From the NCBI GenBank assembly GCA_963703215.1, contig OY969800.1, forward strand, positions 3,151,297-3,215,296: DNA of 64,000 nucleotides, given 5' to 3'. The position numbers and the translations under genes are program-made. This DNA is from an uncultured Bacteroidota bacterium (lineage in GTDB: Bacteria > Bacteroidota > Ignavibacteria > Kryptoniales > JAKASW01). Under the pieces are notes generated by a model. The model saw only the letters and a list, made by a program, of their open reading frames with translations, was not told the origin of the DNA and made no database searches. Positions 4,367 to 40,374 of the stretch are shown here, one piece after another; positions within the stretch are counted from its first letter, which is position 1, and each line of letters opens with the position of its first letter.

Positions 4367-5416
4367 TTAGTTTGTCGGCTCCATAAGTTTGCTCACGGAC
4401 TCTCTGAGATCGTCCGGCTGCAAGTGCGAATATATCGCCGTTACGTTTACGCTCGAATGTCCGAGCAGCTTGGACACTTGGTAAATCGAAACGCCTCTTT
4501 GCACGAGCCATGATGCGAAGGTATGCCGTAAGCTGTGAAAACTCAGCTTCGGATTCAGCTTTGCCCTAACAACGTATCTCTTGAAAATCTTTGTGATCGA
4601 ATCCTGCGTTATCGGCTTGTGGTTCAACGTGAAAACAAACTCCGTCTCAGCGATCTCTTTCCTTCTCGTTAAAATTTCTTGTGCCTTTTTATTAAGTGGT
4701 ACAGTACGGACGCGCTTCGATTTCGTTAGGTGTACCCTGTTATCAAGGATCACAATTCCATCGGCAAGGTTGACTTGATTCCATTCGAGTGTCAAAAGTT
4801 CCATTTGCCTTAGTCCTGTGTTGCCTGCGAATTCTACCAAGTCCCGTATGTCTGCCTTGTCAATCGTTGTCAAAAGGACGTGGAACTCTTCAGGAGTGAG
4901 GAAAAGAGGGAGCTTTTCAGGTATTCTGATTTTGCCGATGCCATGACACGGATTTTCTTTTAGCTGTTTGTCTCTCACAGCTTTGTTGAACGCCGAAGAA
5001 AGGTTGATATAGTCCCTTCTTGCGGCATAAACTGAAGCCTCTTTGATTCGCTTGGTGAAGAACCGCTCAAGTTCCTGTGTGGTTATCTCCGTTATCCTCA
5101 CATTGCCGAAATGCCGTTCCAGCATTCCGAACGTTACCATGAAGGCTTTTCTGGTTTTGACCGTGTGAATGCCTTCGGAATATTTCAGGAATTGGTCGGT
5201 AAATTCTTTAAGCGAGATCGGAACTGTTTCTTGTTCCTGTCGCTGTCTCAGTTCATCGTTGAAGTTGCGAAGGAATGCTAAGGCTTCTTGTTTGAATTTC
5301 TTTCCGGTTGAGATGCGTTTTTCTTTGCCTCCGTCATCGTAAACGAGATAATAGATTCCGTTACTTCGCTTGAATAAGAACATGATGCCTCCGGTGGTTT
5401 GAGTTGAGGCATTCAT
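4367..5416 (-). CDS. tyrosine recombinase / phage-type integrase
   Basis: 349 aa. The C-terminal catalytic region reads ...GLRQMELLTLEWNQV...HSLRHTFASWLVQRGVSIYQVSKLLGHSSVNVTAIYSHL (R, H-x-x-R, H/Y motifs). It lies 122 nt from the 3' end of tRNA-Ser. Confidence 0.9.
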   Translation of the reverse strand: MNASTQTTGGIMFLFKRSNGIYYLVYDDGGKEKRISTGKKFKQEALAFLRNFNDELRQRQEQETVPISLKEFTDQFLKYSEGIHTVKTRKAFMVTFGMLERHFGNVRITEITTQELERFFTKRIKEASVYAARRDYINLSSAFNKAVRDKQLKENPCHGIGKIRIPEKLPLFLTPEEFHVLLTTIDKADIRDLVEFAGNTGLRQMELLTLEWNQVNLADGIVILDNRVHLTKSKRVRTVPLNKKAQEILTRRKEIAETEFVFTLNHKPITQDSITKIFKRYVVRAKLNPKLSFHSLRHTFASWLVQRGVSIYQVSKLLGHSSVNVTAIYSHLQPDDLRESVSKLMEPTN

Positions 5417-5538: not shown

Positions 5539-5628
5539 CGGAGAGGGAGGGATTCGAACCCTCGATACCCCTTTACAGAGTATGACGGTTTAGCAAACCG
5601 TTGCCTTCAACCACTCGGCCACCTCTCC
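5539..5628 (-). tRNA. tRNA-Ser (anticodon GCT)
   Basis: The reverse complement reads GGAGAGGTGGCCGAGTGGTTGAAGGCAACGGTTTGCTAAACCGTCATACTCTGTAAAGGGGTATCGAGGGTTCGAATCCCTCCCTCTCCG. It has a 7-bp acceptor stem, anticodon stem ACGGT/ACCGT, loop TTGCTAA, a long variable arm and T-loop GGTTCGAATCC. CCA is not encoded. Confidence 0.92.
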
Positions 5629-6038
5629 AGTTGAATTCTTCTCACTTTCGCTCTTTTCTTTTTCGGTACGAACAGCGAAAGTACAACTCTTGGCTTTCAT
5701 GGTGCGAACTGATTGCCGCATTTGGTACTAACCATGATGCCAACTGATTTCATTCTCATTTCAAAAAGAACGATTGCTGGGATAAATTACAAAAGAAGTT
5801 TGCTTGATGCAATTGTAGATGAAGGTGATTATGCCTTTCACAAACCATTGGACCCGCGAATTACACTAATTATTCATTTCGCGAAAATTTGCACCAATTT
5901 AAATTTCAATTCTTAAAATTGATGGCGACATATCTCCTGCTTTGTCAAATGCTTAATCAACAAGATAAGTCAGACCCCCTTTTTCCTAAAAAGCTGAATA
6001 CACTCTCAAGCTTAGACAATGAAGATCAAACAGCTAAG

Positions 6039-22930: not shown

Positions 22931-23466
22931 ATTGAAAAATTTGCTCAACTTATTCCCTTTCAACGCAGCCTACTTCCACATTTGGAATTTAAGTGCCAGG
23001 TTATTATACTGGTCATGGAGACGATGTCCATGGTTGGTATGCCAGGGTGCTGCTGAATTAAGAACCCATGTAGGTAAGTGTAACGATGTCCGTGAGTGAC
23101 GTTTAAAAGAGTCATGGTCATCGCGCCGTGAACCCAGCTGTTCAGGAGTTGAACTCCTGAACAACAGAAGAAATAAATCGAGGCTTGCAGCGTGCAGAGA
23201 GCGAAGTGGGATTCAAGTAGGAGTGCCTGCATTGATTAAATGGAGGCTGACCCGTCGAGGACGGGCTCTGACAGGAATCGGATGGAGGCATACACCCCCA
23301 AAATGGCGTATTATACTGTCAAATCGGCATGTTACGGCGTTTGGCTGCAATGTCGCACAAGCCAGGAGACACGTGACAGCATCCGGCCGCTATCTCGCAT
23401 CGTCCGGGAGCCATCTTAGGTAATTATATACTTGACAAAGGCAAATGGATTAGTTATATTAGATAC

Positions 23467-24384
23467 ATGATGAACGAGGATAAAATGAAGAAATTGAACA
23501 GTTTCGCAGACTTGGACAAGGTACTTCCAGATGAAAAGGCTTGCCAAACCTTCTTGATTGACCAACGCTGGAATGGAAAGCCTGTCTGCATCAAATGTGG
23601 AAGTGTCCGTAAACTTTATATCATTAATGGCGGCAAATTGCTTCAGTGTGCCGATTGCAGGAAAACCTTTTCTCCGAAGGTCGGGACTATCTTTGAAGAT
23701 TCGCCGGTTCCGTTGAAAAAGTGGTTCATGGCTATCTACGTACTCACCGCACATAAGAAAGGAATTTCTTCCGTTCAATTGTCCAAGGACATAGACGTAA
23801 CTCAAAAGACAGCATGGTTCATGCTTCATAGAATCCGTCATGCCGTGAAAGTGAAGTCCTTTGAAAAACCACTTGGCGGTATCGTTGAGGTTGATGAAAC
23901 ATACGTCGGAGGCAAGACACTCAAGAATAAGATGGTCCCAGGACAACGTAGAAAGGCTGTCGTTTTCGGAATGGTACAAAGACAAGGTGAAGTCCGAGCA
24001 ATGCCGATCAAACATGCTTGGGTTGAGATAATGGATCCGATTATCAAAGAGAACATTTCCCCGGATTCCACACTTATGACCGATGAGCTTCCCGCTTACA
24101 TCAACACAGGTAGGACGTTCAAAGAACATGGCACGGTCAACCATAGGAGCCATGAATATGTCCGCGGTCAAGTTCATACTAATACCATTGAAGGTTTCTG
24201 GTCTATCTTGAAACGTGGTATCAATGGAATTTATCACCATGTTAGTGAAGAACATTTGCACCGTTACACCGACGAATATGCTTATAGATATAATTCACGT
24301 TCACTTACTGACCCTCAGAGGTTTGAGAAGTTTTTTGAGAAGGTGGAAGGTCGGTTGACGTACAAGAAGCTTGTTGAAGGTTAA
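23467..24384 (+). CDS. IS1595-family (ISXO2-like) DDE transposase with N-terminal zinc ribbon
   Basis: CIKCGSVRKLYIINGGKLLQCADCRKTFSPKVGTIFEDSPVPLKKWFMAIY is the transposase zinc-ribbon. VEVDETYVGGK...LMTDELPAY...HTNTIEGFWSILKRGI is the IS1595 DDE-type pattern. Confidence 0.9.
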   Translation: MMNEDKMKKLNSFADLDKVLPDEKACQTFLIDQRWNGKPVCIKCGSVRKLYIINGGKLLQCADCRKTFSPKVGTIFEDSPVPLKKWFMAIYVLTAHKKGISSVQLSKDIDVTQKTAWFMLHRIRHAVKVKSFEKPLGGIVEVDETYVGGKTLKNKMVPGQRRKAVVFGMVQRQGEVRAMPIKHAWVEIMDPIIKENISPDSTLMTDELPAYINTGRTFKEHGTVNHRSHEYVRGQVHTNTIEGFWSILKRGINGIYHHVSEEHLHRYTDEYAYRYNSRSLTDPQRFEKFFEKVEGRLTYKKLVEG

Positions 24385-24533
24385 GAGTGATATACTTATC
24401 AACCAATTTAACGATTGCTATATCAAAGCCTTCAAGTTCACCGCCCATACAATCGGGAGAAAGAACGCCGGCAGTGAAATCCGCTATGATGTTAGAAACT
24501 TCTTCCTCTTTAGGTAAAATATGACTATGTGCC

Positions 24534-25139
24534 ATGGATGACTCCGTTCAATTAAAATATGCTCAATTAGTTGGACAAATAACCTTTGATTTTAACACAC
24601 TGGAAGAGGCTATGCACAGTGCAATTGCAGAATTAATAGGCATTCCAGATAAAGATGTCGCGGGTCGCATTACGGCCGGAGAAGCATTCCAAGACCTGCA
24701 ACGTCTTTTAAACGTCTTATTCAGATACAGGGTACAGAGCCTGACGCAATTGGAGAGACTTGACAATCTAAACAAGAGATTAGACGGGAACGGTGGAACC
24801 ATTATCGGTATCAACGCTGAACGTAACGAACTATTGCACGGTGCATGGAAGCTGGTAATATTCCTTGGAAAAACCAGGGCGATGAAATCCAAACGTTCCA
24901 AAATGAATCTCAGGAAATATAAAGCCGAATTTCGCTTTGTGGAGGTTGCCGAACTGGAGAACTTAATCGTTAAAATCAATGATACAACAAGAGAACTAAG
25001 ACAGCTCATGGAAGATAACCGGGAATTAATTAAAGACCACATAAAAGCCTACAACGCACTTTGGGAATCCAATAATTTCAACATGGTAAAAAAATTCAAT
25101 GAAAAGTATTATGAAGAAGAAGAAAACTGGCAAAGCTAA
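24534..25139 (+). CDS. hypothetical protein (IS passenger gene 1)
   Basis: 201-aa ORF inside the IS boundaries. It looks helical and charged, with no motif recognised. It is AT-rich like the rest of the IS. Confidence 0.5.
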   Translation: MDDSVQLKYAQLVGQITFDFNTLEEAMHSAIAELIGIPDKDVAGRITAGEAFQDLQRLLNVLFRYRVQSLTQLERLDNLNKRLDGNGGTIIGINAERNELLHGAWKLVIFLGKTRAMKSKRSKMNLRKYKAEFRFVEVAELENLIVKINDTTRELRQLMEDNRELIKDHIKAYNALWESNNFNMVKKFNEKYYEEEENWQS

Positions 25140-25235
25140 GTACGAAAAGCCTCTCAAACTCGACATGAGTTTCGAGGATGCTGTTAAGCTGATAGTCAAA
25201 GCGAAACCTCCGAAGAAAAAATAACTGAGTGTTCC

Positions 25236-25685
25236 ATGACGTTCGATGAATTCAAGGCAATCGCCACCAAACAATCAATAGCGTCCATAATAGGACTGAT
25301 AGCGGGAATACTAATATCAGCCATCTTATGGCTTTTCTCCGATATTCCCCCCGCAATCTTAAAACTACTTGAATTCCTGCCCAATACAGGACTGAAAAAA
25401 TTATTGCTTGGGTTACTTGTTGTCTGCCTATCGGAGGGAGTTTGGATATATAGTCGGCGCACCAAGTTAAAACCCGGATTTGGAGTGCTATGGGATAGAA
25501 AATTAAATCCATATTGCCCCTCCTGTAAAAATCTGCTGACGAATTATACCAATTGGAGTCATACCTCTCCCCAACATTACGCTTGGGGATTTTGGTGTGT
25601 CAAGTGCCAACAAAAAGTATTTCTCAATACCGATGATGGTGCTTCGATTAGCTTGGAAGACGCGAAAGAACAGCTTCGCAAGTAA
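25236..25685 (+). CDS. hypothetical membrane protein with C-terminal zinc-ribbon (IS passenger gene 2)
   Basis: 149 aa. It has two predicted TM helices (IASIIGLIAGILISAILWLF and LLLGLLVVCLSEGVWIY) followed by CPSC...CVKC. It ends 68 nt before the right inverted repeat. Confidence 0.5.
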   Translation: MTFDEFKAIATKQSIASIIGLIAGILISAILWLFSDIPPAILKLLEFLPNTGLKKLLLGLLVVCLSEGVWIYSRRTKLKPGFGVLWDRKLNPYCPSCKNLLTNYTNWSHTSPQHYAWGFWCVKCQQKVFLNTDDGASISLEDAKEQLRK

Positions 25686-25892
25686 TCCCCACCTCTCAAC
25701 AATCCATCTCTTTACAACCTTGCCAAGGTGTCTTAGTTTACTCATTTTGTCCTGCCTTTGTCAAGTATATAATTACCGCAGATTACATTACAAGTCTAAA
25801 CGGTCATTGCATCGAGGCTGAAGGATTACTCCGTTAAATCGAAAACGGCGACGCAGGGGACTACGGATGCCAAGTACGATGCGGAAGAGGAT

Positions 25893-26405
25893 TTGATCGC
25901 GCAGGCGATCCGCGTCGCGTCGGGGCTTTCACTCCTCGGAACCGATACGAAGAATGAAACTCTGAAGTCGATCGGGCACGCGGCCCCTTCCTATCTCCGC
26001 GGAATGAGCGAGACCAAGCTCATTACGACCACAAAGGGAATCCTCGAGGCGGCTCAGAATAATGCGACGGCATTGGCCGGGAAGTACCAGATCTCCGCCG
26101 CCGACATTACCCTCCTCGACACGCTGATCAAGGCATTCGAGAAGGCGATCGGCGCAAAAGGGAGCGGGATGGGAACCCAGAAAAGCTCGAACAAGTCGGC
26201 GAAGCAGGTGCTGAGAGAGATAACGGGTGACCTGGATCAGATCGATACGGCCATGGAGCTTCTTCCCAAAAATGACAAGGATGCCATGGACTTTTATCTC
26301 AAGTACTTTTCTGTACGCGGGATAAAGGATACCGGGATAAGACATAAGCCGCCCAAGCCGCCGAACGATACGAACAAACCGCCCGACGACACCAAGAAAC
26401 CATAG
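25893..26405 (+). CDS. hypothetical protein in a GC-rich foreign fragment, possibly 5'-truncated
   Basis: The frame is open from 25800, and the only candidate start is TTG 25893. The C-terminus is a Pro/Lys-rich tail (KPPKPPNDTNKPPDDTKKP). Codon usage is GC-rich, unlike neighbouring genes. Confidence 0.4.
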   Translation: MIAQAIRVASGLSLLGTDTKNETLKSIGHAAPSYLRGMSETKLITTTKGILEAAQNNATALAGKYQISAADITLLDTLIKAFEKAIGAKGSGMGTQKSSNKSAKQVLREITGDLDQIDTAMELLPKNDKDAMDFYLKYFSVRGIKDTGIRHKPPKPPNDTNKPPDDTKKP

Positions 26406-26605
26406 GGATGAACTCACTCCCGTGTAAGAGCATCACGGGACAGGCCCCGTGTGGGAGTATCACCCCGAAGGGATCACTTCGTGACGGGACAGGCCGCCCT
26501 CTCTTACAAAGGGAGGGCGGCAATAATGAAGCTAAGCTGGCAAGGGGTGTACTGGCAAGACGGCGCGGAGGGGTGGTGAGACGCCTACATTGGCTCCACC
26601 AAGGG

Positions 26606-26640
26606 TTGACTAATTTAGTAAACATTCATATATTTACTAT
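26606..26640 (+). promoter_or_regulatory. putative promoter plus palindromic operator upstream of the HTH-methyltransferase
   Basis: TTGACT at 26606-26611, a 17-nt spacer, then TATATT at 26629-26634. The inverted repeat tagtaaa-N10-tttacta (26616-26639) overlaps the -10 region. GGAG lies 5 nt before the ATG at 26662. Confidence 0.4.
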
Positions 26641-26661
26641 GAAGATGCGAGGAGACAGGAG

Positions 26662-27945
26662 ATGAAATCGATCGATCCAATGGATTTCGGCAAGGTAATC
26701 AGGGAACAGCGTCAGGGTATTAGTTTATCCCTATCAGACTTGAGCTCAAAACTGAAGGTCACAAAGGGATATTTATCTCGCCTTGAATCAGGGAAAGCTG
26801 TGCCATCGATGGAGATGGTGAAGAAACTATCGAGATTTCTGAAGATAGATTCAACTCAACTTGGCTTTCTTGCCGGCTACCTTCCTTCAGACGTTGAAAA
26901 AATACTCTATACAAATCCAATCAAAGCCCCAGCAATTCTTAGAGAAACATTTGGACCCTCAATCAAGCCGGAGGAAATCGTTCCCTGTAACAGGGAACAA
27001 GAAAAGGCACATATAGTCAAGTCAAGGCCTTCCTATGAGTTATTGAACGTGGATTGTTTTCGATGGATGGAAGATCGCAAAAGCAACAGCATTCACGCGA
27101 TTGTAACGGATCCACCATACGGATTGAAAGAATATACCGCGACGGAAAAAGCTAAACTCCGAAACGGCAATGGAGGCGTTTGGCGTATTCCTCCTAAGCT
27201 TGATGGATATGAGCGTCATCCCCTGCCGAGGTTCACAGTGTTAGATCAAGAAGAAAAGAACGAACTAAGAAGATTCTTCTTTGAGTGGGCACAGAAAGCG
27301 TTAAAAATCCTTGTCCCAGGCGGACACATATTCATTGCAACAAATCCACTCCTCTCGCATTTGGTATATGAAGCTATCGAGAGAACAGGTTTCGAGAAGC
27401 GAGGTGAAATTATTCGCTTAGTACAAACACTTCGAGGTGGAGATAGACCTAAGAACGCGCATCATGAGTTCAGCAACGTGACCGTTATGCCACGGTCCTG
27501 CTGGGAACCTTGGGGCCTTTTTAGAAAACCTTGCGAGGGAAGGGTCCAAGACAATTTGCGTAAATGGAAAACCGGTGGTCTTCGTCGGATTTCCAAAGAA
27601 CAACCGTTCTGCGATGTGATAAAGAGTTCCCCTACGAGAGCCAGCGAAAGAGAAATCGCTCCGCACCCTTCCCTCAAACCACAGGCATTCATGCGACAAG
27701 TGGTTCGAGCGGCGTTGCCCCTTGAGGAAGGAATTATTCTTGACCCTTTCATGGGCGCTGGCTCAACGATAGCTGCTGCATGCTCATTAGGATATCGAAG
27801 CATAGGTATTGAGTCTGACACAGAATATTATCGCATTGCACTCGCGGCAATCCCGAAACTTACGGCACTACCATCAAATGGCCAGGGCAGCCTTACCAAT
27901 TATCCTGACAATGTGTCGCAGGAAGAACTATTTATGGTTGGCTAA
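26662..27945 (+). CDS. DNA methyltransferase (beta-class N6A/N4C, DPPY) fused to an N-terminal XRE-type HTH domain
   Basis: HTH: ISLSLSDLSSKLKVTKGYLSRLESGKAVPSMEMVKKL. Motif IV: IHAIVTDPPYG. Motif I near the C-terminus: ILDPFMGAGSTIAAA. The order IV-then-I indicates the beta class. Confidence 0.85.
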   Translation: MKSIDPMDFGKVIREQRQGISLSLSDLSSKLKVTKGYLSRLESGKAVPSMEMVKKLSRFLKIDSTQLGFLAGYLPSDVEKILYTNPIKAPAILRETFGPSIKPEEIVPCNREQEKAHIVKSRPSYELLNVDCFRWMEDRKSNSIHAIVTDPPYGLKEYTATEKAKLRNGNGGVWRIPPKLDGYERHPLPRFTVLDQEEKNELRRFFFEWAQKALKILVPGGHIFIATNPLLSHLVYEAIERTGFEKRGEIIRLVQTLRGGDRPKNAHHEFSNVTVMPRSCWEPWGLFRKPCEGRVQDNLRKWKTGGLRRISKEQPFCDVIKSSPTRASEREIAPHPSLKPQAFMRQVVRAALPLEEGIILDPFMGAGSTIAAACSLGYRSIGIESDTEYYRIALAAIPKLTALPSNGQGSLTNYPDNVSQEELFMVG

Positions 27946-28573
27946 GACGCCTCGATGTTTCCCTACGCCGACGCCCGGAAGCCTGTAAAGAAAATTCGCC
28001 CGCAGTTTTTCCACACCTGAAGTGGTGATTGAAGCGGTTGGAGTCCTCCTTGAAGCGCCTTTCCTTCCCGAGAAGGACCAATCTTTCTTTGTGAGCTTGG
28101 CACAGAGGATCTCCACAAATGTTAAAGGAACAACCTGCTTGTCGTCTTGCATTCCTACCATGTAGCGAAATATGAGGAGCCAGCTGTCTTCAGGGTTGTG
28201 TCCCTGCCATCCGCCCTTTTGAATTGAGGTCTTCACTTCAATTCCCTCGTCTCCTTTTAGAACTAAGTTGGAGCTATAGTGTCCTTTTGGAAGCAAATCT
28301 GGGTGTCCTCCTACTTTCAGGTTTGCAATTAGAGTGCTGGAAACTCGCGCGATATTCTTGACGAGCAACTCTGAAAGGATACCAGAGAAGGAATTGCCAA
28401 GCAGCAGACTCTTCCATTGGGCGAAACCCGTTGTTGACCAGAAAATCATTAATACCATTGAATAAACGGTGCGTTTCCATAACGGCATTTGATACTTCGT
28501 CGACAGTAAGATGATATGGTAGGGCGACATTGCGATTAACATACTTGTGATCAAGTTGTTTAAGACGTTCCAT
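27928..28573 (-). pseudogene. putative type II restriction endonuclease (PD-ExK), apparently frameshifted
   Basis: The C-terminal frame (27928..) contains GGHPDLLPKGHY...KGDEGIEVKTS, which is a PD...E-x-K motif. The protein-like N-terminus MERLKQLDHKYVNRNVALPYHLTVDEVSNAVMETHRLFNGINDFLVNNGF is in a different frame (28274..28573). The two frames can be joined by a 1-nt shift near 28420-28430. It is convergent with the methyltransferase and overlaps it by 18 nt. Confidence 0.5.
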
Positions 28574-28820
28574 GGTTTCCTTGTTAGGTTATTGGGGCCG
28601 GACTGAACAATAAAGGTTTTAAGGTACTGCAAAGAAGCAACGGCACCAAGCTGCGTTCCGCTATTTTCACATTACGTGCGCGGCACGAAGCGAGTCTCCA
28701 TGAAACACAATAATCGAGCGTTGTGATTCGCGTTGTTATACGCCGCCCAGCAATTCCTGTTCATTGACGGGCACGCGCGGGAGGCAATTAGGAGGACTGT
28801 ATTCGATTTCATTCTTGCTG

Positions 28821-29108
28821 TCATTTTGGTTTCTCTGTGGCTGACTCTTCCCCTTTCTTAACCATATCATTCGTGATTTGAACAGACAACCACAACACAA
28901 AGAGTATCATCGCGAAAAGCAGAAGCCACGACGGATAAATCCCAAAGAAGGTAAGCAAGGTTAGGATCACTGTCAGTAACCCTGTATTGATCAACTGTTG
29001 GATGAGAACATGCCTCCGCTTGTGATATCGCGGAATCAACCTTATCCAGGTCGCAAATAAAGAAACCAAGATCGAGACACCTATTACCTCTAGTACAAAA
29101 TAGAACAC
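28821..29108 (-). CDS. small membrane protein (cassette-like ORF)
   Basis: 95 aa with three hydrophobic helices and a charged C-terminus. Confidence 0.55.
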   Translation of the reverse strand: MFYFVLEVIGVSILVSLFATWIRLIPRYHKRRHVLIQQLINTGLLTVILTLLTFFGIYPSWLLLFAMILFVLWLSVQITNDMVKKGEESATEKPK

Positions 29109-29143
29109 TGGAATCTCCTGAAAGAAAAATATTTGATGATGCG

Positions 29144-29198
29144 TCGTAACAAGGGATTCGGCCGCATGTTCTTCAACAACCCGAATTCTGCCGTATTG
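29144..29198. repeat. short imperfect palindrome with an AAC core (attC-like candidate)
   Basis: gtcGTAAC-aagGGATTCGG-(19 nt)-CCGAATTCtgcc-gtattg. It lies 36 nt upstream of the ORF start at 29108 and directly abuts repeat copy R1. Confidence 0.3.
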
Positions 29199-29306
29199 TA
29201 TTTGCTTGCTTCTTTACTGCAAGAGTAAAATTATGATTAGCGAAGGAGAAATAAAAATTCATTTCCACGCACCGGAAGAAACTATGGGGGTGAGGTAGGG
29301 GCGGTA
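29192..29306. repeat. R-repeat copy 1 (about 115-nt intergenic repeat family)
   Basis: It shares ...cttctttactgcaa.ag...aaattatg...aggagaaataaaaattcattt...caccggaagaaactat.gggg tgag.gtagggg.ggta with copy 3, and the core with copies 2 and 4. It ends at the stop codon of 29307..29615. Confidence 0.75.
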
Positions 29307-29615
29307 TCATTGCTTCTTTCTGCTGACGATAATGCCTATGACAATTCCACCTATTGCCCCAAAGCCAAGGATCGGTCCGAATGAGCCGGTTATGATTGCA
29401 TCTGGTATACTCATTAACAAGCTAATGAGGAGGCCATTGACCCACCCTGGAAACGGAAGCGTCGTATTGGGAATTAGAAAACCTATTGCAAAGCGGCTCG
29501 TAAAAGCTCCAGCCATCGCGATATTTCGATTTGGTAAAGCCATGAACAGCATTGGGATGATATCAATAATTCCGAAAGCCAACCCTGCTATGAGACCAAC
29601 TCTTAGTCGTGACAT
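29307..29615 (-). CDS. small membrane protein (cassette-like ORF)
   Basis: 102 aa, Gly/Ile-rich, with 3-4 TM helices. Confidence 0.55.
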   Translation of the reverse strand: MSRLRVGLIAGLAFGIIDIIPMLFMALPNRNIAMAGAFTSRFAIGFLIPNTTLPFPGWVNGLLISLLMSIPDAIITGSFGPILGFGAIGGIVIGIIVSRKKQ

Positions 29616-29627
29616 TTTAACTCTCCT

Positions 29628-29945
29628 TTACTTTTTCGGTTGAGCCAGATCAAATGCCTCTTTTAACAATCGAGCGAATGATCTATTCAACTCCCGCTTG
29701 TCAGTGATTTTGTAGAAGTGATGGAATCTGTTCGCAGAGATTTGTTCGACCTTGCTTGCCGATGGAGCAGCTTTAGAGCGGTCGAGGACGACATTCACGC
29801 CTAGATAACTTTTCTTGGGATGGATAGCTATGAATGCCCGTTCTCGAACAATGTGAATGGATTCCTTTTTGGGTTCCACTTTATACGTTCCGATGGAGTC
29901 CAATAACTGCATCAGAGTCGTTTGTAAATCATCGACGGTATTCAT
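29628..29945 (-). CDS. DUF5655-like small protein
   Basis: 105 aa. The pattern ...ESIHIVRERAFIAIHPKKSYLGVNVVLDR....FHHFYKITDKRELNRSFARLLKEAF resembles the DUF5655 family, from memory only. Confidence 0.45.
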   Translation of the reverse strand: MNTVDDLQTTLMQLLDSIGTYKVEPKKESIHIVRERAFIAIHPKKSYLGVNVVLDRSKAAPSASKVEQISANRFHHFYKITDKRELNRSFARLLKEAFDLAQPKK

Positions 29946-30013
29946 GAGTTTCTGTTCCTTGAATGTGATTGAGTATGATAAATGCTAAACCGTTTTTCGC
30001 AGCCGCCATTTTC

Positions 30014-30098
30014 GCCTAGCGTGATACGGGAAGAAGTCGCGAGACGGGCGACCACCTTGCATATATAATCTGGAGCGTCTTTCTTCCGCATGTTAGCC
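30014..30098. repeat. attC-like imperfect palindrome A (85 bp)
   Basis: The left arm is GCCTAGC-gtgata-CGGGAAGAAGTCGC and the right arm is GCGTCTTTCTTCCG-cat-GTTAGCC. The TAA stop of the isochorismatase-family gene (30093-30095) lies inside the core GGCTAAC on the coding strand. Confidence 0.45.
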
Positions 30099-30650
30099 GC
30101 CGTTGCCCGAAAGGGCGTCAAAATCAATCTCACTTACTTCCTTCGTCTTAACAAACCATTCCGCCAGGACTTTATTGTGGTGCGCGATAATCTGCGATGC
30201 CGATAGAATGTCAGTGTCCCATGTGCTATGAGCGTCCTTTGCCAGAATCACTTGGTAACCCAAACTAAACGCGCGACGGCAAGTCGTGTCCACGCAAAAC
30301 TCAGTTTGCATGCCACATATGACAAGCGTCTTGATATTACGAGACTCCAACTGTTTCTGAAGCTCGGTGCCGTGGAACGAATCTGGCGTATCTTTCTCAA
30401 TGACAGCATCATTGCGCGATGGGGCGATGTCTGGGTGAATGTTCCATCCTGGAGTGCCGCGCTCTAACGGGTGTCCTCGCCCACCATTGTGTTGAACATA
30501 AATAATGGGGACAGAAGCAGCGCGCGCACCACTAATCAACCGCATCACTTGTGACAGTAAGTCCTTATCTCCCGCAATGGGCGGGATAATGGGACTCTTG
30601 AACACCCCGAGTTGCATATCAATCACAATCAATGCTATATCGCGTGGCAT
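30093..30650 (-). CDS. isochorismatase-family cysteine hydrolase
   Basis: ALIVIDMQLGVF contains the catalytic Asp region. TLVICGMQTEFCVDTTCRRA contains the catalytic Cys. 185 aa. Confidence 0.85.
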   Translation of the reverse strand: MPRDIALIVIDMQLGVFKSPIIPPIAGDKDLLSQVMRLISGARAASVPIIYVQHNGGRGHPLERGTPGWNIHPDIAPSRNDAVIEKDTPDSFHGTELQKQLESRNIKTLVICGMQTEFCVDTTCRRAFSLGYQVILAKDAHSTWDTDILSASQIIAHHNKVLAEWFVKTKEVSEIDFDALSGNGG

Positions 30651-30692
30651 ACGGAATAACTTCCTCTACTGATAGAAATCGCTCGGGCAATG

Positions 30693-30830
30693 GCGCCTAA
30701 CGTCCTGCCGGAAGAAGTCGTTGCTTTCGCTCGCTATAAATATTGCGCAACATCGAGTCATCGAGCAAAAGCAATGAAGCGAGAATGAAATGTAAAAATG
30801 ACGAGCGTCTTCTTCCGGCTTGTTATGCGC
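30693..30830. repeat. attC-like imperfect palindrome B (138 bp)
   Basis: gcGCCTAAC-gtcct-GCCGGAAGAAGTCG ... CGTCTTCTTCCGGC-tt-GTTATGCgc. The cores fit RYYYAAC / GTTRRRY: GCCTAAC on plus, GTTAGGC on minus. The arms are homologous to site A. The next ORF starts 45 nt beyond the core. Confidence 0.5.
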
Positions 30831-30865
30831 AGCGCCCAAATACGATTCAAAATCAGCAGCCACCT

Positions 30866-31312
30866 TCACTGAACTTTCACAACCTTAGTCAAGAGTTTGA
30901 ACGTGGAGTCTAGCGCCATTAGCTTAAATTCATACCGCCGTTCGGGATAAACAGTTACGAGTTCATATAACACATTCTCGAAAATACTGTCGGCCATTGG
31001 ATTAGAAATGGCTCTCGGTGAAACGAACAGGTCAACGGAATAAACATTTTGATTGGTAATGGCAAAGATTGCTCGGGCATTCTGCACTCGTGGAGACCAT
31101 ATTCCTTCCTTTTCGAGCAAGGCGACGATCACGAAAGCATCTGACTTAGACACCTCTGTCGAATCGTATAACATAGTGCATTGGGTATCCTTCGTGACTA
31201 TTTTAGCGTATCTCTCCTCGCTGTCACCCTTGGCTTGTTGCCTGTATTGCGCGAAGAGCAAGGTAGGGGCAAACAAAGCTAAGATGGTATACAGTAATCT
31301 TCTTGAAGTCAT
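30866..31312 (-). CDS. hypothetical secreted protein (cassette-like ORF)
   Basis: 148 aa with signal peptide MTSRRLLYTILALFAPTLLFAQ. No motif recognised. Confidence 0.6.
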   Translation of the reverse strand: MTSRRLLYTILALFAPTLLFAQYRQQAKGDSEERYAKIVTKDTQCTMLYDSTEVSKSDAFVIVALLEKEGIWSPRVQNARAIFAITNQNVYSVDLFVSPRAISNPMADSIFENVLYELVTVYPERRYEFKLMALDSTFKLLTKVVKVQ

Positions 31313-31331
31313 TTTATCAGACCTTTCTTAT

Positions 31332-31533
31332 TTCGGGCGTTGCGCATAACGTGCCGCGCGAAAAACGTCCGTGGCGAATTCGATTTTTTAATAAACATCA
31401 ACATAGAAAGGATATGCTATGATACGATCAATCACAAAGCTTTTTAACAAAATTCGCCATGGCGTTTTTTGCGGTGTTCCACGACGTTCGCGAAGCGATA
31501 CAAATAATGGAACAGCGCGAGATCGCGCGGCAC
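31332..31533. repeat. long nested inverted repeat C with GCATAAC / GTTCCAG cores
   Basis: aacgtgccgcgcg (31338-31350) is the perfect reverse complement of cgcgcggcacgtt (31514-31526). The inner arms aaaaacgtccgtggcgaatt (31351-31370) and aattcgccatggcgttttt (31441-31459) pair with one bulged base and one mismatch. Confidence 0.45.
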
Positions 31534-31731
31534 GTTCCAGCGGACAGCTCATGAGCGAAGCTCGCTCGATTGATGCCTTTCGCGTTGAGACAGGAAGTCG
31601 AAACGCGAACGATAAACCTGAAGATTCCATGTTAATTATGATAGTTGAGCATCCGGATGGAAGCGGTGAACTAAGAGGTGTAGAGGAAGACGATGGAGTC
31701 ATCAGCTTCACGCCTGAAAAATGGAAATACA

Positions 31732-32106
31732 TCAAATCCCTGGTGTTGCGCCAAATATAGTCATCCATTTTATGATAATGTTTTTCTTCAACTTTTTCTT
31801 TTTTAATGAACGCACGTATCCATCTACGCAGGATTGAATTTCGAAATCATGCAGTTTTCTATACGCGTATATTTCCATTGTTACAACATGATCATGCAGA
31901 GGAAATTTAAACCTATGCTGAAGCACTGGCGCTTCCATTTTGAACCTCCTAATTTCCAATATACCACAAAGCGAATGTCGTTTCGACGTTCGCATGACTG
32001 TTTTAATGAGCGCGTTCCAACACATGAAAACTATCATAGGCGTTGGATTGCGCGAATACTCTTTTGTGAGCCGCCACGGACGGCGGCGAATAAATTCAGG
32101 CATCAA
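31732..32106 (-). CDS. hypothetical protein (weak call; coding strand ambiguous in 31.5-32.1 kb)
   Basis: 124-aa ORF co-oriented with the array. Competing plus-strand ORFs exist, for example a 69-aa ORF from ATG 31552 to 31760 ending ...MLIMIVEHPDGSGELRGVEEDDGVISFTPEKWKYIKSLVLRQI. Confidence 0.25.
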   Translation of the reverse strand: MMPEFIRRRPWRLTKEYSRNPTPMIVFMCWNALIKTVMRTSKRHSLCGILEIRRFKMEAPVLQHRFKFPLHDHVVTMEIYAYRKLHDFEIQSCVDGYVRSLKKKKLKKNIIIKWMTIFGATPGI

Positions 32107-32125
32107 TCAGCTTCGCGAATGTCCG

Positions 32126-32297
32126 CTGGAACTACCATAAAAACGAATTTCATTTTTCCGCCACCGGCAGCGTGTTATACGCGCCATCACGTTTATTTTC
32201 TTCATCTCTGCAAAGCTCAAATTATGATTGGTCGAGGAGAAATAAAAATTCATTTGCCCGACCTGGAACAAATCATGAAGGGGCGGTAGGGCGGCGC
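32126..32297. repeat. R-repeat copy 2 (extended form: short AAC...GTTATAC palindrome plus R core)
   Basis: ctGGAAC at 32126-32132, the aaaaacgaa/ttcattttt palindrome, GTTATAC at 32174-32180, then the R core (ctgcaaagctcaaattatgattggtcgaggagaaataaaaattcatttgcccg...ggggcggtagggcgg). The left part is homologous to copy 4. Confidence 0.7.
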
Positions 32298-32328
32298 CAA
32301 ATATTATTCCTCAACCAGGTTTGAGCAG

Positions 32329-32700
32329 TCATAAGGTTTTCCCGACCCATTGGCCGACCGTAATCCTGTGACCCTCAGGTGATGCTATTCCAAACTCACG
32401 CATTTCCCAAGGTTTGGTTTCGATCGGAAAGAGAATCTTGATTCCCTTCCGTTTCAGGTCTTCATAATAGCCGTCCGCATCGTCGACGACTAGATAGCCG
32501 AAGTATCTGTGATCACCGAGTTTGCCGGGAGATATTGCGTCCGGACATTCTCCCAGCATCACCATACAATTGTCTCTCTGAAGGAACTTCCAACCGCCTG
32601 GCTCTGACACGATCTTGAATCCCAGAACTTCAAAAAAACTCGATGAGGCTTGTAGATCGTGCACGGCCAACACATAGTGGTTCTGAAGAATCTTTGCCAT
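32329..32700 (-). CDS. VOC/glyoxalase-bleomycin-resistance family protein
   Basis: 123 aa. HYVLAVHDLQASSSFFEVLGFKIV...GYLVVDDADGYYEDLKRKGIKILFPIETKPWEMREFGIASPEGHRITVGQ is typical of VOC-fold proteins. Confidence 0.8.
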   Translation of the reverse strand: MAKILQNHYVLAVHDLQASSSFFEVLGFKIVSEPGGWKFLQRDNCMVMLGECPDAISPGKLGDHRYFGYLVVDDADGYYEDLKRKGIKILFPIETKPWEMREFGIASPEGHRITVGQWVGKTL

Positions 32701-32715
32701 TATTACTCTCCGTTC

Positions 32716-32874
32716 GGTGAACGATTAATGAATGTTAGTGTGCCACTATAGCGTAATGTTGTTTACTGCTTCTTTACTGCAAAGCTTAAATTATGTTTGG
32801 CGGAGGAGAAATAAAAATTCATTTGCCCGCACCGGAAGAAACTATAGGGGTGAGGGTAGGGGTGGTATGTTATG
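32716..32874. repeat. R-repeat copy 3 with flanking cores (GGTGAAC ... GTTATGC)
   Basis: The R core at 32751-32868 is nearly identical to copy 1. GTTATGC at 32868-32874 contains the TAA stop of the DUF4386 gene on the coding strand (GCATAAC). Confidence 0.7.
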
Positions 32875-33583
32875 CGTTGGTGCTACCGTCGTCACGAGGC
32901 CTCACACCAACGATAAGCAAGTACAGTACCATCGAGATTTCTGCGATTGCTGACGGAATGACGACGAAGGAGTGAATCTTTTGACCGAAGTGGGGGACAA
33001 TGAAAGCAGCGAGCACGTCAATGAGGTAGCAGATGCCACCCACGATAAGAATCTCGCCGAGCCACTTGGGAAACATCTCTGATTTGTAAGCGAGATACCC
33101 AAGCGGCACTAACCACAGGCCAAAGAATATCTGCGCAATGAGGATACCATAGTGCTGGGTCTCAAGCAGAAGATATATGAGAGCATGTGAACCCTCGATG
33201 CCAAAGGCGGCAGCATATCCACTGTTGGTTGCCACACGCAAGCCTTCAAACTCGAAGACCGCATTGAGGCATCCGATGCCGGCAGCGAGACAGACGAGGA
33301 TTAACATTACCCTCGCCATGTTCTTGTTCACATGCTTCAGCAGGATGTAAAGGGTCAGGGCCAGAAAGACAAAGAATGTCTGATCCAACAGATCAGCGAC
33401 GACGCCTATGCGAACAAGTAAAGGGTTCGCGATGACATTGGCAGCCGTGGCCGCCGCGTTGCCGACAACGTACATCTTGGGTTCAACAAATCCTTCCGCA
33501 AAGCCGCCGAAGATGCCGACGAGCAGGTAGAGGACGCCCGCGATTCTCGCCGTTTTTTTGTTCGAATTCATTTTGTCATCCAT
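32870..33583 (-). CDS. DUF4386-like membrane protein
   Basis: 237 aa. ARIAGVLYLLVGIFGGFAEGFV is followed by multiple TM helices, a pattern I recognise as the DUF4386 family. Confidence 0.65.
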   Translation of the reverse strand: MDDKMNSNKKTARIAGVLYLLVGIFGGFAEGFVEPKMYVVGNAAATAANVIANPLLVRIGVVADLLDQTFFVFLALTLYILLKHVNKNMARVMLILVCLAAGIGCLNAVFEFEGLRVATNSGYAAAFGIEGSHALIYLLLETQHYGILIAQIFFGLWLVPLGYLAYKSEMFPKWLGEILIVGGICYLIDVLAAFIVPHFGQKIHSFVVIPSAIAEISMVLYLLIVGVRPRDDGSTNA

Positions 33584-33658
33584 TTGATTTTCTATTTGCT
33601 ATACCTGCTTTATTCTGTTTGCTACCCCGTTAGTTATGCAATGTCGCCTAAGCATGAC

Positions 33659-33848
33659 GCATAACCACCATAAACACATGTTTCGTTTTTCCGCCATCGG
33701 CAGCGTCTTATGAGCCATAACTTGCGGCGCAGACGCACCATTATGTTTATCTGATTCTTTCCTGCAAAGCACGTTTAAAATTATGATTAGCGGAGGAGAA
33801 ATAAAAATTGTTTTGACGAGGCGAAACGAATTATGAAGCTGCGGTAAG
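33659..33848. repeat. R-repeat copy 4 (extended, most diverged)
   Basis: GCATAAC at 33659-33665, then ccaccataaacacatgtttcgtttttccgccatcggcagcgtcttatg (homologous to copy 2), then ...cctgcaaagc...aaattatgattagcggaggagaaataaaaattg.... Just upstream, GTTATGC (33633-33639) forms a perfect 7-bp inverted repeat with GCATAAC. Confidence 0.65.
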
Positions 33849-39230: not shown

Positions 39231-40374
39231 CTATACTTTGATAATATTCCTTGCGATCACCATTTTTTGGACCTCGCTGGTTCCCTCTCCTATTGTCAGC
39301 AACTTAACGTCGCGGTAAAGTTTTTCCACCGGGAAATCTTTCAGGAACCCGTACCCTCCGTGGATCTGAACTGCCTCCTCGGCAGCCTTGACCGCAACTT
39401 CACTTGCGTAATATTTTGCCGTCGCCGAAGCCAATTGAATACCTTTATCCCGATCTTTTAGAAAGGCAGCCTTCTGTGTAAGCAGCCTTGCCGCTTCGAT
39501 CTTCACCGCCATCTCGGAAATCTTCCATTGGATCGCCTGAAACTCTCCCAGCGGTTTGCCAAACTGAATACGTTCTCTCGCATATTTCACGCTCGCATCG
39601 AGCGCTCCTTGCGCGACACCAACGGCGAGCGCCGCCATTCCAATACGACCGGCATCCAATATTTTAAGGGCTTGTTTTAACCCTTCGCCTTCAGCTCCTA
39701 TGAGATTCTCTTTAGGAATTGACGCGTTTTCAAAAATTAATGTCGAGGTGTCGCTTGCCCGCATTCCTAACTTATTTTCTTTCTTCCCCGCGTAGAATCC
39801 TTTTGTTCCTTTCTCCACAATAAAGGCACTGATGCCCTTCTTCCCTTTCTCCGGATCGGTCAGAGCCATGATGACGGCAATTTCTCCAACCGTACCATGG
39901 GTCGTAAACTGCTTTGTTCCATTTAGGACAAAACATTCTCCGTCCTTGCGAGGCTGTGGTACGTAATGAACCAGAGTCACTGCCACTTGTCGGCTCCGTC
40001 AAGCCCCACGCTCCAATTTTTCGGCCAGAGGTTAATTCAGGCAAATATTTTTGCCTAAGCTCCTCGCTTGCAAAATTGTAGATGTGGCTGGTGCAGAGCC
40101 CATTGTGCGCTGCGACCGACAACGCGACCGAAGGATCAACTCTCGCAATCTCTTCGACCATGATGCAATAATCGACGTAGGTCAGACCTGCTCCGCCGTA
40201 TTTTTCGGGAAATGTGACTCCCATGAAACCGAGCTCGCCCAACTTCTGCATGATTTCAAATGGAAACTCTTGCGATTCGTCGTATCTCATCACGACCGGC
40301 TTTATTTCCATCTCGGCAAATTCCCTCGCAAGCTGGCGCACCTGTTCATTTTCTGGTGTGAACCGGTTGTCCAT
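39231..40374 (-). pseudogene. acyl-CoA dehydrogenase split by a frameshift near 39952 (pseudogene or sequencing error)
   Basis: The N-terminal ORF (39772..40374) is ACAD-like up to ...AWGLTEPTSGSDSGSLRTTA and then degenerates. The C-terminal ORF (39231..39986) resumes RKDGECFVLNGTKQFTTHG... to the end. Removing one base at about 39952 gives LRTTARKDGECFVLNG in a single frame. Confidence 0.8.

Follow-up and report, generated by a model that had tools for sequence, protein, structure and literature searches.

What is the short repeat that stands four times among small, unrelated genes in this window, meaning the whole stretch of 64,000 nucleotides that was analyzed, and does it act as RNA or as DNA? 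An earlier note, made from the letters alone, had described a portable 3' module and had considered an unusually long attC site, a terminator or RNA stability element, a small RNA gene, and a G-quadruplex. The analysis presented here indicates that the repeat, designated R, behaves like a DNA signal, which may be a protein-binding, recombination, or promoter site, and not like an RNA gene, a terminator, or a G-quadruplex.

Copies and anatomy of the repeat

Four plus-strand copies were located at positions 29191-29306, 32183-32297, 32747-32868, and 33737-33848 by three methods in agreement, a repeat finder, a pattern search, and nhmmer, so that the four-copy repeat of the earlier note is real. 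The pattern AAATTATGNTTNGNNNAGGAGAAATAAAAATT matched exactly four times in the window but never in 100 shuffles, a number far above chance (0 expected). The shared motifs ctgcaa(a/g)ag and aaattatg and the 16-mer were present as described. Copies 1 and 3, which had been called near-identical, agree in only 85% over 104 nt. The left extension assigned to copies 2 and 4 exists (49 nt, 84%), but it is a separate junction element and not part of R. It also occurs without R in a second genome.

R proper extends from CTGCAAAG through TTATGAAGC and is a non-coding repeat of roughly 80 to 115 bp with a 34-bp core. This core is bipartite, composed of TTAAAATTATGaTT, about 6 free bases, and aGGAGAAATAAAAAT, and it is accompanied by the CTGCAAAG block upstream. 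In 10 copies from two genomes, the blocks B1 and B2 are unchanged, or nearly so, while the about 6 nt between them vary freely and the flanks are variable, with about 45 to 60% identity. Constant blocks beside a freely varying spacer and varying flanks indicate purifying selection at the nucleotide level.

Copies 1 to 3 of the window (w1 to w3) belong to type A1, the short form. On the plus strand, w1 occupies 29217-29306, with B0 (CTGCAAGAG) at 29217-29225, an ATG at 29233, B2 (AGGAGAAATAAAAATT) at 29244-29259, and a G-tract at 29285-29303; its right end abuts the stop codon (29307) of a minus-strand ORF of 102 amino acids. The second copy, w2 (32208-32297, plus strand; B0 at 32208-32215, ATG at 32224, B2 at 32235-32250), is about 30 nt away from the stop codon (32329) of a glyoxalase-family ORF. 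The third, w3 (32777-32869, plus strand; B0 at 32777-32784, ATG at 32793, B2 at 32804-32819), abuts a GTTATGC box, which overlaps the stop codon (32870) of a DUF4386 ORF. Copy 4, w4 (33762-33840, plus strand; B0 at 33762-33769, ATG at 33783, B2 at 33794-33809), is of type A2, the long form, with a 5-nt insert after B0. On its two sides are the first cassette and a housekeeping gene in divergent orientation. R is indeed attached to unrelated genes at cassette ends. The earlier note had placed all four copies after ORFs, but w4 follows no ORF.

Six further copies, among them L012a to L012d and L007b, were found in a single array of one unrelated, distant metagenome-assembled genome (MAG). The evidence base for the family is these 10 copies in two genomes, and the copies of each genome are confined to one cassette array. 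The conserved-core pattern occurred nowhere else in the second genome or among the scanned GTDB species representatives, true copies were absent from the JGI metagenomes, and R had no match in viral contigs, plasmids, or phages. Relative to the cassette ORFs, all 10 copies point the same way, and they are located at module joints. The association with cassettes, which was to be checked on copies elsewhere, holds.

The host array and its junction elements

The window copies lie in an island at 23133-33840 (10.7 kb), which is missing at the syntenic site in relatives. The island contains an IS1595-family transposase, an HTH-N6/N4 methylase, other ORFs, and, as its right part, a cassette array of small, unrelated minus-strand genes from about 28.6 to 33.84 kb. 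The right border of the island coincides with the right end of w4. At 23166-23182 on the plus strand, 33 nt inside the left border, there is a weakly supported candidate for a degenerate right half of an R core (AGAAGAAATAAATCGAG), with a score reached by 5 of 1,000 shuffles (about 0.5%). The score of another weak R-like match, in the empty site of relative L016, was reached by about 1% of shuffles. Neither match reached significance when the whole locus was searched, and nhmmer did not detect the one at the left border.

Three ordinary attC-like palindromes are present in the array. The first (30013-30100, GCCTAGC ... GTTAGCC) contains the stop codon of an isochorismatase-family ORF within its right box, the second (30694-30830, GCCTAAC ... 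GTTATGC) has 14-nt arms with 93% complementarity and an end-to-end fold with a z of about -2.6, and the third (31340-31492, GCATAAC ... GTTCGCG) has 20-nt arms with 80% complementarity. By definition, a CALIN contains two or more attC sites within 4 kb on the same strand and has no integron integrase nearby (PMC4889954). The island has no integron integrase, and the three palindromes have inverse core boxes. Judged by the boxes and folds of the attC-like sites, the host array looks like an integron-type, integrase-less (CALIN-like) array. No recombinase gene was found in or beside either of the two R-containing arrays; the sole tyrosine recombinase of the window is 24 kb off, beside a tRNA gene, and generic.

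R is placed between the stop codon of a cassette, or the edge of the array, and a terminal junction element with a GTTAYGC-type core box. The same position and orientation in the second genome support the "portable module" of the earlier note. The junction segment of copy 1 (29143-29216, plus strand) contains the box GTCGTAAC (29143-29150), an 8-bp hairpin (GGATTCGG..CCGAATTC), and a T-rich tract; the neighboring minus-strand ORF starts at 29108. That of copy 3 (32716-32776, plus strand) has a GGTGAAC box (32716-32722) at a distance of 15 nt from the glyoxalase-family start codon. The junction element of copy 2 (32125-32207, plus strand) opens with the box GCTGGAAC (32125-32132), and that of copy 4 (33656-33761, plus strand) opens with the core box GACGCATAAC (33656-33665) and closes with a T-rich tract. 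The element of copy 4 shows homology both with its counterpart on the left side of copy 2 and with a junction of the second genome that lacks R. The same junction element is seen with R (w2 and w4) and without R (L012, positions 5795-5900), and the homology stops exactly at CTGCAAAG.

The flanks of the copies are mosaic. The left element is common to w2 and w4, but their right sides are different. The left flank of L012c matches those of L012a and L012b (65 to 73%), but its right flank does not, and the right flank of L007b matches those of L012a and L012b (69 to 71%), but its left flank does not (46%). This places the breakpoints at the edges of the core.

R tested as RNA, terminator, G-quadruplex, or peptide gene

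If R acted as RNA, it might stabilize or terminate the cassette mRNA from the 3' untranslated region or, through a C-rich tract, load Rho; on the plus strand, it might instead encode an antisense small RNA or a short peptide. Agreeing with this, the cassette-strand RNA is unstructured and contains more C than G in most copies (ratio, 1.0 to 2.1), an A/T-rich 7-bp hairpin directly ahead of a T-run can be read from the sequence of the type B copies, and every copy has an ATG and an open frame. The structure predictions argue against it. Using RNAalifold with all 10 copies, 7 pairs appeared on the plus strand and none on the minus strand, and the covariation check suggested earlier gave no compensatory change in support of a consensus structure. 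The type A copies alone yielded a weak consensus (-4.2 kcal/mol), in which the main 10-pair stem was without compensatory changes and only a separate 3-pair helix had any. Rfam contained no match to R at the gathering threshold or even at an E value of ≤5, and the Rfam search revealed no RNA features of the group II or IS110 type at R. A structured noncoding or cis-regulatory RNA, including the small RNA considered before, was rejected because there is no consensus fold supported by covariation on either strand and no Rfam family.

A terminator scan gave no match on the cassette mRNA strand within any R, the type A copies have no hairpin ahead of a T-run, and where the junction elements matched as hairpin plus T-run, they did so on the opposite strand. 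An intrinsic terminator was rejected on the basis of this lack of a terminator-like site on the cassette strand. Under the refuting conditions that the earlier note had named, the RNA and terminator readings both fail. The G-tracts reported for copies 1 to 3 are present, but four runs of at least three G are found in no copy, and a two-tetrad pattern occurs in w1 to w3 only. Since the G-rich (or C-rich) tract is limited to 3 of the 10 copies and absent from the other seven family members, a G-quadruplex was rejected as a family feature, and this limited occurrence also speaks against a function as RNA.

The short open frame from the ATG (M-I-S-G-G-E-I-K-I..) would encode peptides of 17 to 60 codons, with a variable stop position and unrelated tails. 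Codons 3 and 4 change non-synonymously, but the synonymous sites of GGA GAA ATA AAA are constant, and a profile of the peptide found nothing at an E value of ≤10 among 5.8 billion proteins. The unstable stop, the non-protein-like substitutions, and the lack of homologues led to rejection of a small protein gene. Overall, a function of R as RNA or as a template for a peptide is quite improbable.

R tested as an attachment site or a mobile element

R takes the position of an attC site, and it may be a decayed or atypically long attC, with R as the variable terminal region or as an insertion into it, without function and spread by duplication of cassette ends. Known attC sites, which are 57 to 141 bp long, are imperfect palindromes; as single strands they fold back on themselves, with their R and L boxes paired and some bases extrahelical (PMC5027507). 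A left xxxAAC box exists in all 10 copies. On the right side, three copies (w3, L012a, and L007b) have an inverted GTTAxxC and are bracketed by inverse boxes (xxxAAC ... GTTAxxC), three have a second direct xxAAC box, and four have none. Moreover, the type A copies hold CCGGAAGAA, which serves as the arm motif in the ordinary attC-like sites, one attC arm survives beside R in L007b and L012a, and there is some pairing between the left and right flanks in w4 (z, -3.3) and L007b (z, -2.2).

Nevertheless, the DNA of the R junctions folds with a z between -1.2 and +1.4, no better than shuffles, whereas two of the array's three ordinary attC-like sites reach about -2.2 to -2.7 on their better-folding strand. 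In 7 of the 10 copies, the flanks are not complementary and their duplexes no better than those of shuffles. The R-containing spans, measured between two boxes or between a stop codon and a box, are about 145 to 240 nt and exceed the known range. By folding as well as by length, R does not qualify as an attC site, and the "unusually long attC" of the earlier note could not be upheld. Two copies follow no ORF, and neutral decay cannot explain two invariant blocks next to free bases in two distant genomes, so that a decayed attC is unlikely. An attI site was rejected because no intI is located beside any copy and the two arrays contain 4 and 6 copies.

A miniature non-autonomous mobile element, either MITE-like or derived from an attC-targeting IS or group IIC intron, might insert beside cassette core sites. 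R is a discrete unit with sharp ends, as judged from filled versus empty junctions and from the island border, and direct (CT)AAC repeats flank three of the units (L012b, L012c, and w2). A MITE or an IS-derived element was rejected since the ends of R have no terminal inverted repeats and the 4 to 6 copies per genome are all in one array instead of being dispersed. There is also no consistent target duplication, and neither the group II or IS110-type RNA features nor matches in plasmid, phage, or viral collections were obtained. This origin of R has very little probability.

R as a possible recognition site on double-stranded DNA

The reading preferred here, albeit tentatively, is that R is a discrete, non-coding, unstructured junction module of putatively double-stranded DNA, which is presumably recognized by a protein and would most likely be related to recombination. 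The failure of the RNA, ORF, and hairpin readings points to it, as do the restriction of the 10 copies to one array in each of two genomes with none elsewhere in the searched collections, their constant orientation at module joints, the conservation of the two blocks, the mosaic flanks with the same junction element with and without R, and the end of w4 at the island border, together with the two weak matches to R, one at the left border and one in the empty site of L016. In the cassette sense, on the minus strand, the unit reads from the ORF stop codon or array edge through R, the junction element, the GTTAYGC-type core box, and a ribosome-binding site into the next ORF. The core may be bound by a sequence-specific protein that acts on double-stranded DNA, and R may be a recombination or attachment-type site where cassette modules were put together and rearranged, similar to attI or attP and different from the folded single-stranded attC.

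Some observations count against a recombination role, among them the lack of a recombinase gene in or beside either array, the failure of the R-like matches at the left border and in the empty site to reach significance over the whole locus, and the limitation of the family to two genomes. Crossover sites of tyrosine and serine recombinases usually possess dyad symmetry, but the R core has none. The bases between the blocks differ among the copies, and this would block strand exchange at this position. Cassette movement without R could be explained by the integron-type core boxes 45 to 95 nt from the core, and homologous recombination across 34 identical bases could have generated the mosaic flanks.

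Alternatively, R may be an outward-reading promoter or operator module, comparable to Pc, that is carried by a cassette at its 3' end or stands at the array head and that would transcribe over the junction element into the next cassette or cassettes, with the invariant blocks as contacts for polymerase and a regulator. Some cassettes carry their own promoters (PMC4889954). A co-oriented ORF starts about 77 to 270 nt downstream, in the cassette sense, of all 10 copies, and the array-head copies w4 and L012d are in divergent intergenic regions, where a Pc-like promoter would be expected. Read on the cassette strand, B1 includes a CATAAT that never varies, and the A/T-rich B2 is 16 to 17 nt upstream of it; the 5-nt indel falls after this -10-like hexamer. 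In addition, CTTTGCAG is similar to the -35 region (GCTTTGCTA) of the native GWxTD promoter, and a good -10 hexamer follows TTGCAG at a distance of 15 to 17 nt in three copies.

However, these latter hexamers fall within the variable region, most copies lack them, and the -35 partner of CATAAT would be a poor TTTTTA compared to the TTGAxx of native promoters in the window. Scans with the sigma-70 consensus gave matches of 9 out of 12 positions for w4 on the cassette strand and for L007b, L012a, and L012b on the opposite strand, at differing positions, so that no promoter was conserved in position. The 14 plus 16 invariant bases, which include the putative spacer TTTCTCCT, are also more than a promoter needs. 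A promoter or operator role is nevertheless nearly as likely as the recombination role.

The recombination-related reading may be extended: R could be the recombination site of a second way of capturing cassettes, sequence specific and double stranded, that coexists with folded attC sites in arrays of the FCB group. Modules down to the size of a single ORF would be joined head to tail at the 34-bp site by a recombinase encoded elsewhere and exchanged between distant genomes. This extension is rather doubtful.

Relation to known systems and biological meaning

Among known systems, the VCR-type attC sites of sedentary chromosomal integrons share with R the position at the 3' end of unrelated, promoterless cassettes, beside core boxes of the RYYYAAC/GTTRRRY type, and both are conserved within an array and portable with the cassette. 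R differs in being no imperfect palindrome, without a fold or L''/L' pairing, in the conservation of its primary sequence across distant genomes, and in being additional to the palindromic element or replacing it. The Pc-attI region is likewise double-stranded, non-palindromic, and sequence specific and, as with w4 and L012d, is located in a divergent intergenic region, where a GTT core box and the first cassette follow directly downstream in the cassette sense. An attI site exists once per integron, whereas R is present in multiple internal copies with no intI beside it.

In CIME-type arrays, tandem accretion of integrative and cis-mobilizable elements leaves direct repeats of att sites, which separate modules at one chromosomal locus. 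R is also a direct repeat between modules with one copy at an island border, but its modules can comprise as little as 569 bp and one gene, there is no integrase, and the copy at the left border is at best a weak fragment. BOX, ERIC, and Correia elements and "mobile promoters" are dispersed in genomes and often palindromic or equipped with terminal inverted repeats. R is similarly short, modular, non-coding, and next to unrelated genes, with a possible promoter or protein-binding content, but it occurs in one array only and has no inverted repeats.

In the current view, folded attC sites are the only means by which cassette arrays are held together and reshuffled, and most cassettes are taken to be promoterless. 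An element that is conserved in sequence, non-palindromic, and located at cassette joints in two distant genomes and at an island border would mean either a new type of joint or a portable expression signal. If the recombination reading is true, R would be a new kind of joint for the assembly of accessory genes; if the promoter reading is true, R would be a portable expression signal and would explain how integrase-less arrays stay expressed.

Copies of the repeat R in the window and in a second genome

The repeat R, proposed by the earlier note as a four-copy element, is real. A repeat finder run on the window returned, at the places named in that note, two families, one of 104 nt with three members and one of 46 nt with four, and the pattern AAATTATGNTTNGNNNAGGAGAAATAAAAATT matched four times, always on the plus strand, and not once in 100 shuffles. 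The four copies were also recovered by an nhmmer profile, at 29191-29299, 32183-32290, 32747-32860, and 33737-33848. Copies 1 and 3 had been regarded as near-identical; the repeat finder placed them at 85% identity. In a short-read assembly of the same strain, the sequence breaks off within copy 4, 123 nt upstream of the gene for a GWxTD protein, as is expected for a repeat.

When one genome per species was scanned for the exact pattern, true copies appeared in one other genome only, on contig CAWEES010000002.1. The two loci from this contig were contiguous, and the other 12 loci of the scan were chance matches inside genes. After extension of the search region by 10 kb from an ENA copy, a profile search revealed exactly six copies within 9.6 kb of this second genome and none outside that stretch. 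The JGI metagenomes contained one match, which was by chance, and no true copy; a scan of viral contigs, plasmids, and phages returned nothing. The R core is identical in both genomes. Since the second genome was missing from the best 43 GWxTD relatives, a close relationship between their hosts is unlikely. No empty site could be defined for the second genome because its GH127 gene stands in a different context in each relative.

Structure of R and of the junctions

The orientation relative to the cassette genes is constant among the ten copies. Read in the cassette sense, which is the minus strand of the window, the order is ORF stop (or divergent gene), R, junction element, core box, ribosome-binding site, and next ORF. 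The distance from the ORF stop to R is 0 to 30 nt in the five copies of type A, a type being defined by the right-hand continuation of the core, that follow an ORF, and greater in the other three. The claim that every copy follows an unrelated ORF does not extend to copy 4 of the window, which has no preceding ORF; there and in copy L012d of the second genome (2 of 10 copies), a divergent neighbouring gene takes the place of the ORF stop. The junction element between R and the core box comprises 45 to 95 nt, and the consensus of the core box, GTTAYGCGTCAT, is shared with the ends of the ordinary attC-like sites.

The left extension described for copies 2 and 4 is indeed common to both but represents the junction element, which is present elsewhere without R. 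Downstream of the GH127 gene in the second genome, an element of this type (“ext”) occurs without R, and the homology stops exactly at CTGCAAAG. This indicates that R proper begins with CTGCAAAG and ends with ..TTATGAAGC; in copy 4, R proper is located at 33762-33840, and its right end is the island border as determined by BLAST of the intergenic DNA of a relative. The ext element is itself a second conserved, non-palindromic junction element of about 100 nt (..TAAC(C/T)ACCATAAA.AC...TTTCGTT.TTCCGCC..C.GCAGC.T.TTAT..), found with and without adjoining R at 32125-32207 and 33656-33761 of the window and at 5795-5900 of locus L012 in the second genome.

Two blocks within R, TTAAAATTATGaTT and aGGAGAAATAAAAAT, are invariant or nearly so across the ten copies, and at least six versions exist of the approximately 6 bases between them. 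In half of the copies (5 of 10), CTGCAAAGC is followed by 5 inserted nucleotides. The core is continued on its right side by one of three unrelated sequences (types A, B, and C) and on its left side by one of several, the two sides being freely combined: L012c has the left flank of L012a and L012b with a different right flank, and L007b has the right flank of these two copies with a different left flank.

The island and its cassette array

A 10.7-kb island at 23133-33840, located between the genes for a TonB-dependent receptor and the GWxTD protein, is absent in all syntenic relatives examined; its bounds were obtained by BLAST of the intergenic DNA of one relative against the window. In the relatives with a GWxTD protein 59-70% identical (three groups), the GWxTD gene directly adjoins its upstream neighbour, which is the TonB-dependent receptor gene in the closest relatives and a PIG-L gene in others. 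The R model gave no detection in the empty-site intergenic DNA of these three groups. Weak R-like pairwise matches, AGAAGAAATAAATCGAG at 23166-23182 just inside the left border and another in the empty site of one relative, were not significant when the whole locus was searched. At 23139-23163, 6 nt inside the left border and immediately ahead of the weak R-like fragment, lies an inverted repeat with perfect 11-bp arms, TGTTCAGGAGT tga ACTCCTGAACA.

The left part of the island contains genes for an IS1595-family transposase (23467-24384) and an HTH-N6/N4 DNA methylase (26662-27945). The methylase gene overlaps a 234-aa minus-strand ORF, which is possibly the cognate restriction enzyme, and the island also holds several ORFs without Pfam hits. 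The 10-mer TACTGCAAAG, which is the upstream block B0 of R including two preceding bases, has one extra plus-strand match at 28624-28633, where the cassette array has its left edge and beside the start of the 234-aa ORF; chance alone would give about 0.1 such matches in the window. Outside the island, the TonB-dependent receptor gene is followed by an intergenic block of 160 nt (22973-23132) that shows 72% identity to the same position in the relative L016 (9788-9947), is absent from the relative L018, and has no Rfam match at the gathering threshold; a conserved non-coding element and a gene remnant are both conceivable. At 39231-40374, the acyl-CoA dehydrogenase gene consists of two overlapping minus-strand ORFs of 251 and 200 aa, where relatives have one gene of 380 aa; this is a frameshift, representing either a pseudogene or an assembly error.

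The cassette array forms the right-hand part of the island. From about 28.6 to 33.84 kb, small unrelated genes, every one of them on the minus strand, encode, among others, two small membrane proteins and DUF5655, isochorismatase-family, 148-aa, glyoxalase-family, and DUF4386 proteins. Three joints are imperfect palindromes with inverse integron-type core boxes (GCCTAGC...GTTAGCC, GCCTAAC...GTTATGC, and GCATAAC...GTTCGCG), end-to-end folding was better than that of shuffles in two of these three, and one cassette ORF has its stop codon within a core box. The sole tyrosine recombinase of the window (4367-5416, 349 aa) is generic and scores far below the cut-offs for XerC/D and integron integrases. 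It adjoins a tRNA gene (5539-5628), an arrangement typical of an integrated element, at a distance of 24 kb from the array. With its boxed palindromes and no integron-type integrase, the array resembles an attC cluster lacking an integrase as defined previously (PMC4889954), the sites being judged from their boxes and folds. The six cassette proteins present in the collection, which does not contain the DUF4386 protein, were each a singleton when clustered at 90% identity, giving no evidence for occurrence of these modules elsewhere.

In the attC-like sites at 30013-30100 and 30694-30830, the arm with the plus-strand AAC triplet exceeds its partner by 3 to 4 nt. As the extra bases sit on the AAC arm of the attC top strand (PMC5027507), the plus strand would be the top strand; all cassette ORFs would then lie on the bottom strand, the reverse of canonical cassettes. 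In the third site (31340-31492), the arm asymmetry is the opposite. The stretch between this site and R copy 2, which has no other assignment, contains a 69-codon minus-strand ORF (31732-31941) with a strong ribosome-binding site, AGGAGG, 7 nt upstream of its ATG; this ORF, and not the longer overlapping ORFs of either strand, is probably the true cassette gene.

R as attC site, RNA, or coding sequence

An unusually long attC site had been considered for R, and a foldable attC is unsupported. Folded as DNA, the R junctions were no better than shuffles (z of -1.2 to +1.4), a flank-to-flank duplex was significant only in copy 4 of the window and marginal in L007b, and the junction spans lie above the size range reported for attC sites (PMC5027507).

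The proposed structured RNA found no support either, with no covariation on either strand and no Rfam match. Rfam at gathering thresholds detected in the window only a tRNA, elsewhere, and a lenient search (E≤5) of 28.5-34 kb gave three chance-level matches, none on R. RNAalifold, applied to all copies or to type A only, predicted no consensus structure for the cassette strand and for the plus strand only a weak stem without compensatory changes. Nor did the scans place a hairpin with a T-run on the cassette strand within R, as a terminator would require. The G-tracts in copies 1 to 3 are present as described; no copy has four runs of at least 3 G. The suggested G-quadruplex is not a feature of the family, the G-tract being absent from 7 of 10 copies.

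Six-frame translation revealed no conserved frame in R save a short ATG frame with variable ends. This sole start-codon frame open through the core encodes M-I-S-G-G-E-I-K-I, followed by unrelated tails of 8 to 50 residues; codons 3 and 4 change the amino acid, and the synonymous positions in GGA GAA ATA AAA never vary. A profile of the R peptides had no match at E≤10 among 5.8 billion proteins. The variable tails, the substitution pattern, and the missing peptide match speak against a small protein gene, and the last rejects R as the 5' stub of a known gene. Membership tests for a MITE, an Rfam family, a terminator, and a G4 motif were negative, and a dif/Xer-like site, sigma-54 promoter, LexA box, and IHF site, judged by eye, were dropped as poor matches.

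Putative function of R

The combination of two invariant blocks with freely varying bases beside them, an identical core in distant hosts, an unchanging orientation, restriction to the arrays, sharp ends, and mosaic flanks points to a signal on double-stranded DNA that is read by a sequence-specific protein. R may be a recombination or attachment-type site, a putative role that we propose tentatively. The mosaic flanks, the filled versus empty junction, and the island border are consistent with it, as are the weak R-like matches at the left border and in the empty site of a relative; against it, there is no recombinase at hand, and the core has no dyad symmetry.

Alternatively, R may be a promoter or operator feeding the next cassette. 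Every copy has a co-oriented gene 77 to 270 nt downstream, the head copies are situated in divergent intergenic regions, and the cassette strand contains an invariant CATAAT. The -35 hexamer matching this CATAAT is poor compared to native promoters, however, neither the Bacteroidetes-type (TTTG-N19-21-TAnnTTTG) nor the sigma-70-type model had a position-conserved match in R, and the invariance of R goes far beyond what a promoter needs. The recombination site is ranked slightly above the promoter or operator. By analogy to the Pc-attI region of integrons, R could also combine both roles.

R shares its position with attC and attI sites but fails the defining tests of both. A novel form of cassette-array junction element, so far from two genomes only, is the most fitting description. 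The R family is small and its role putative. For integron specialists, such a sequence-conserved, non-palindromic joint would be unexpected.
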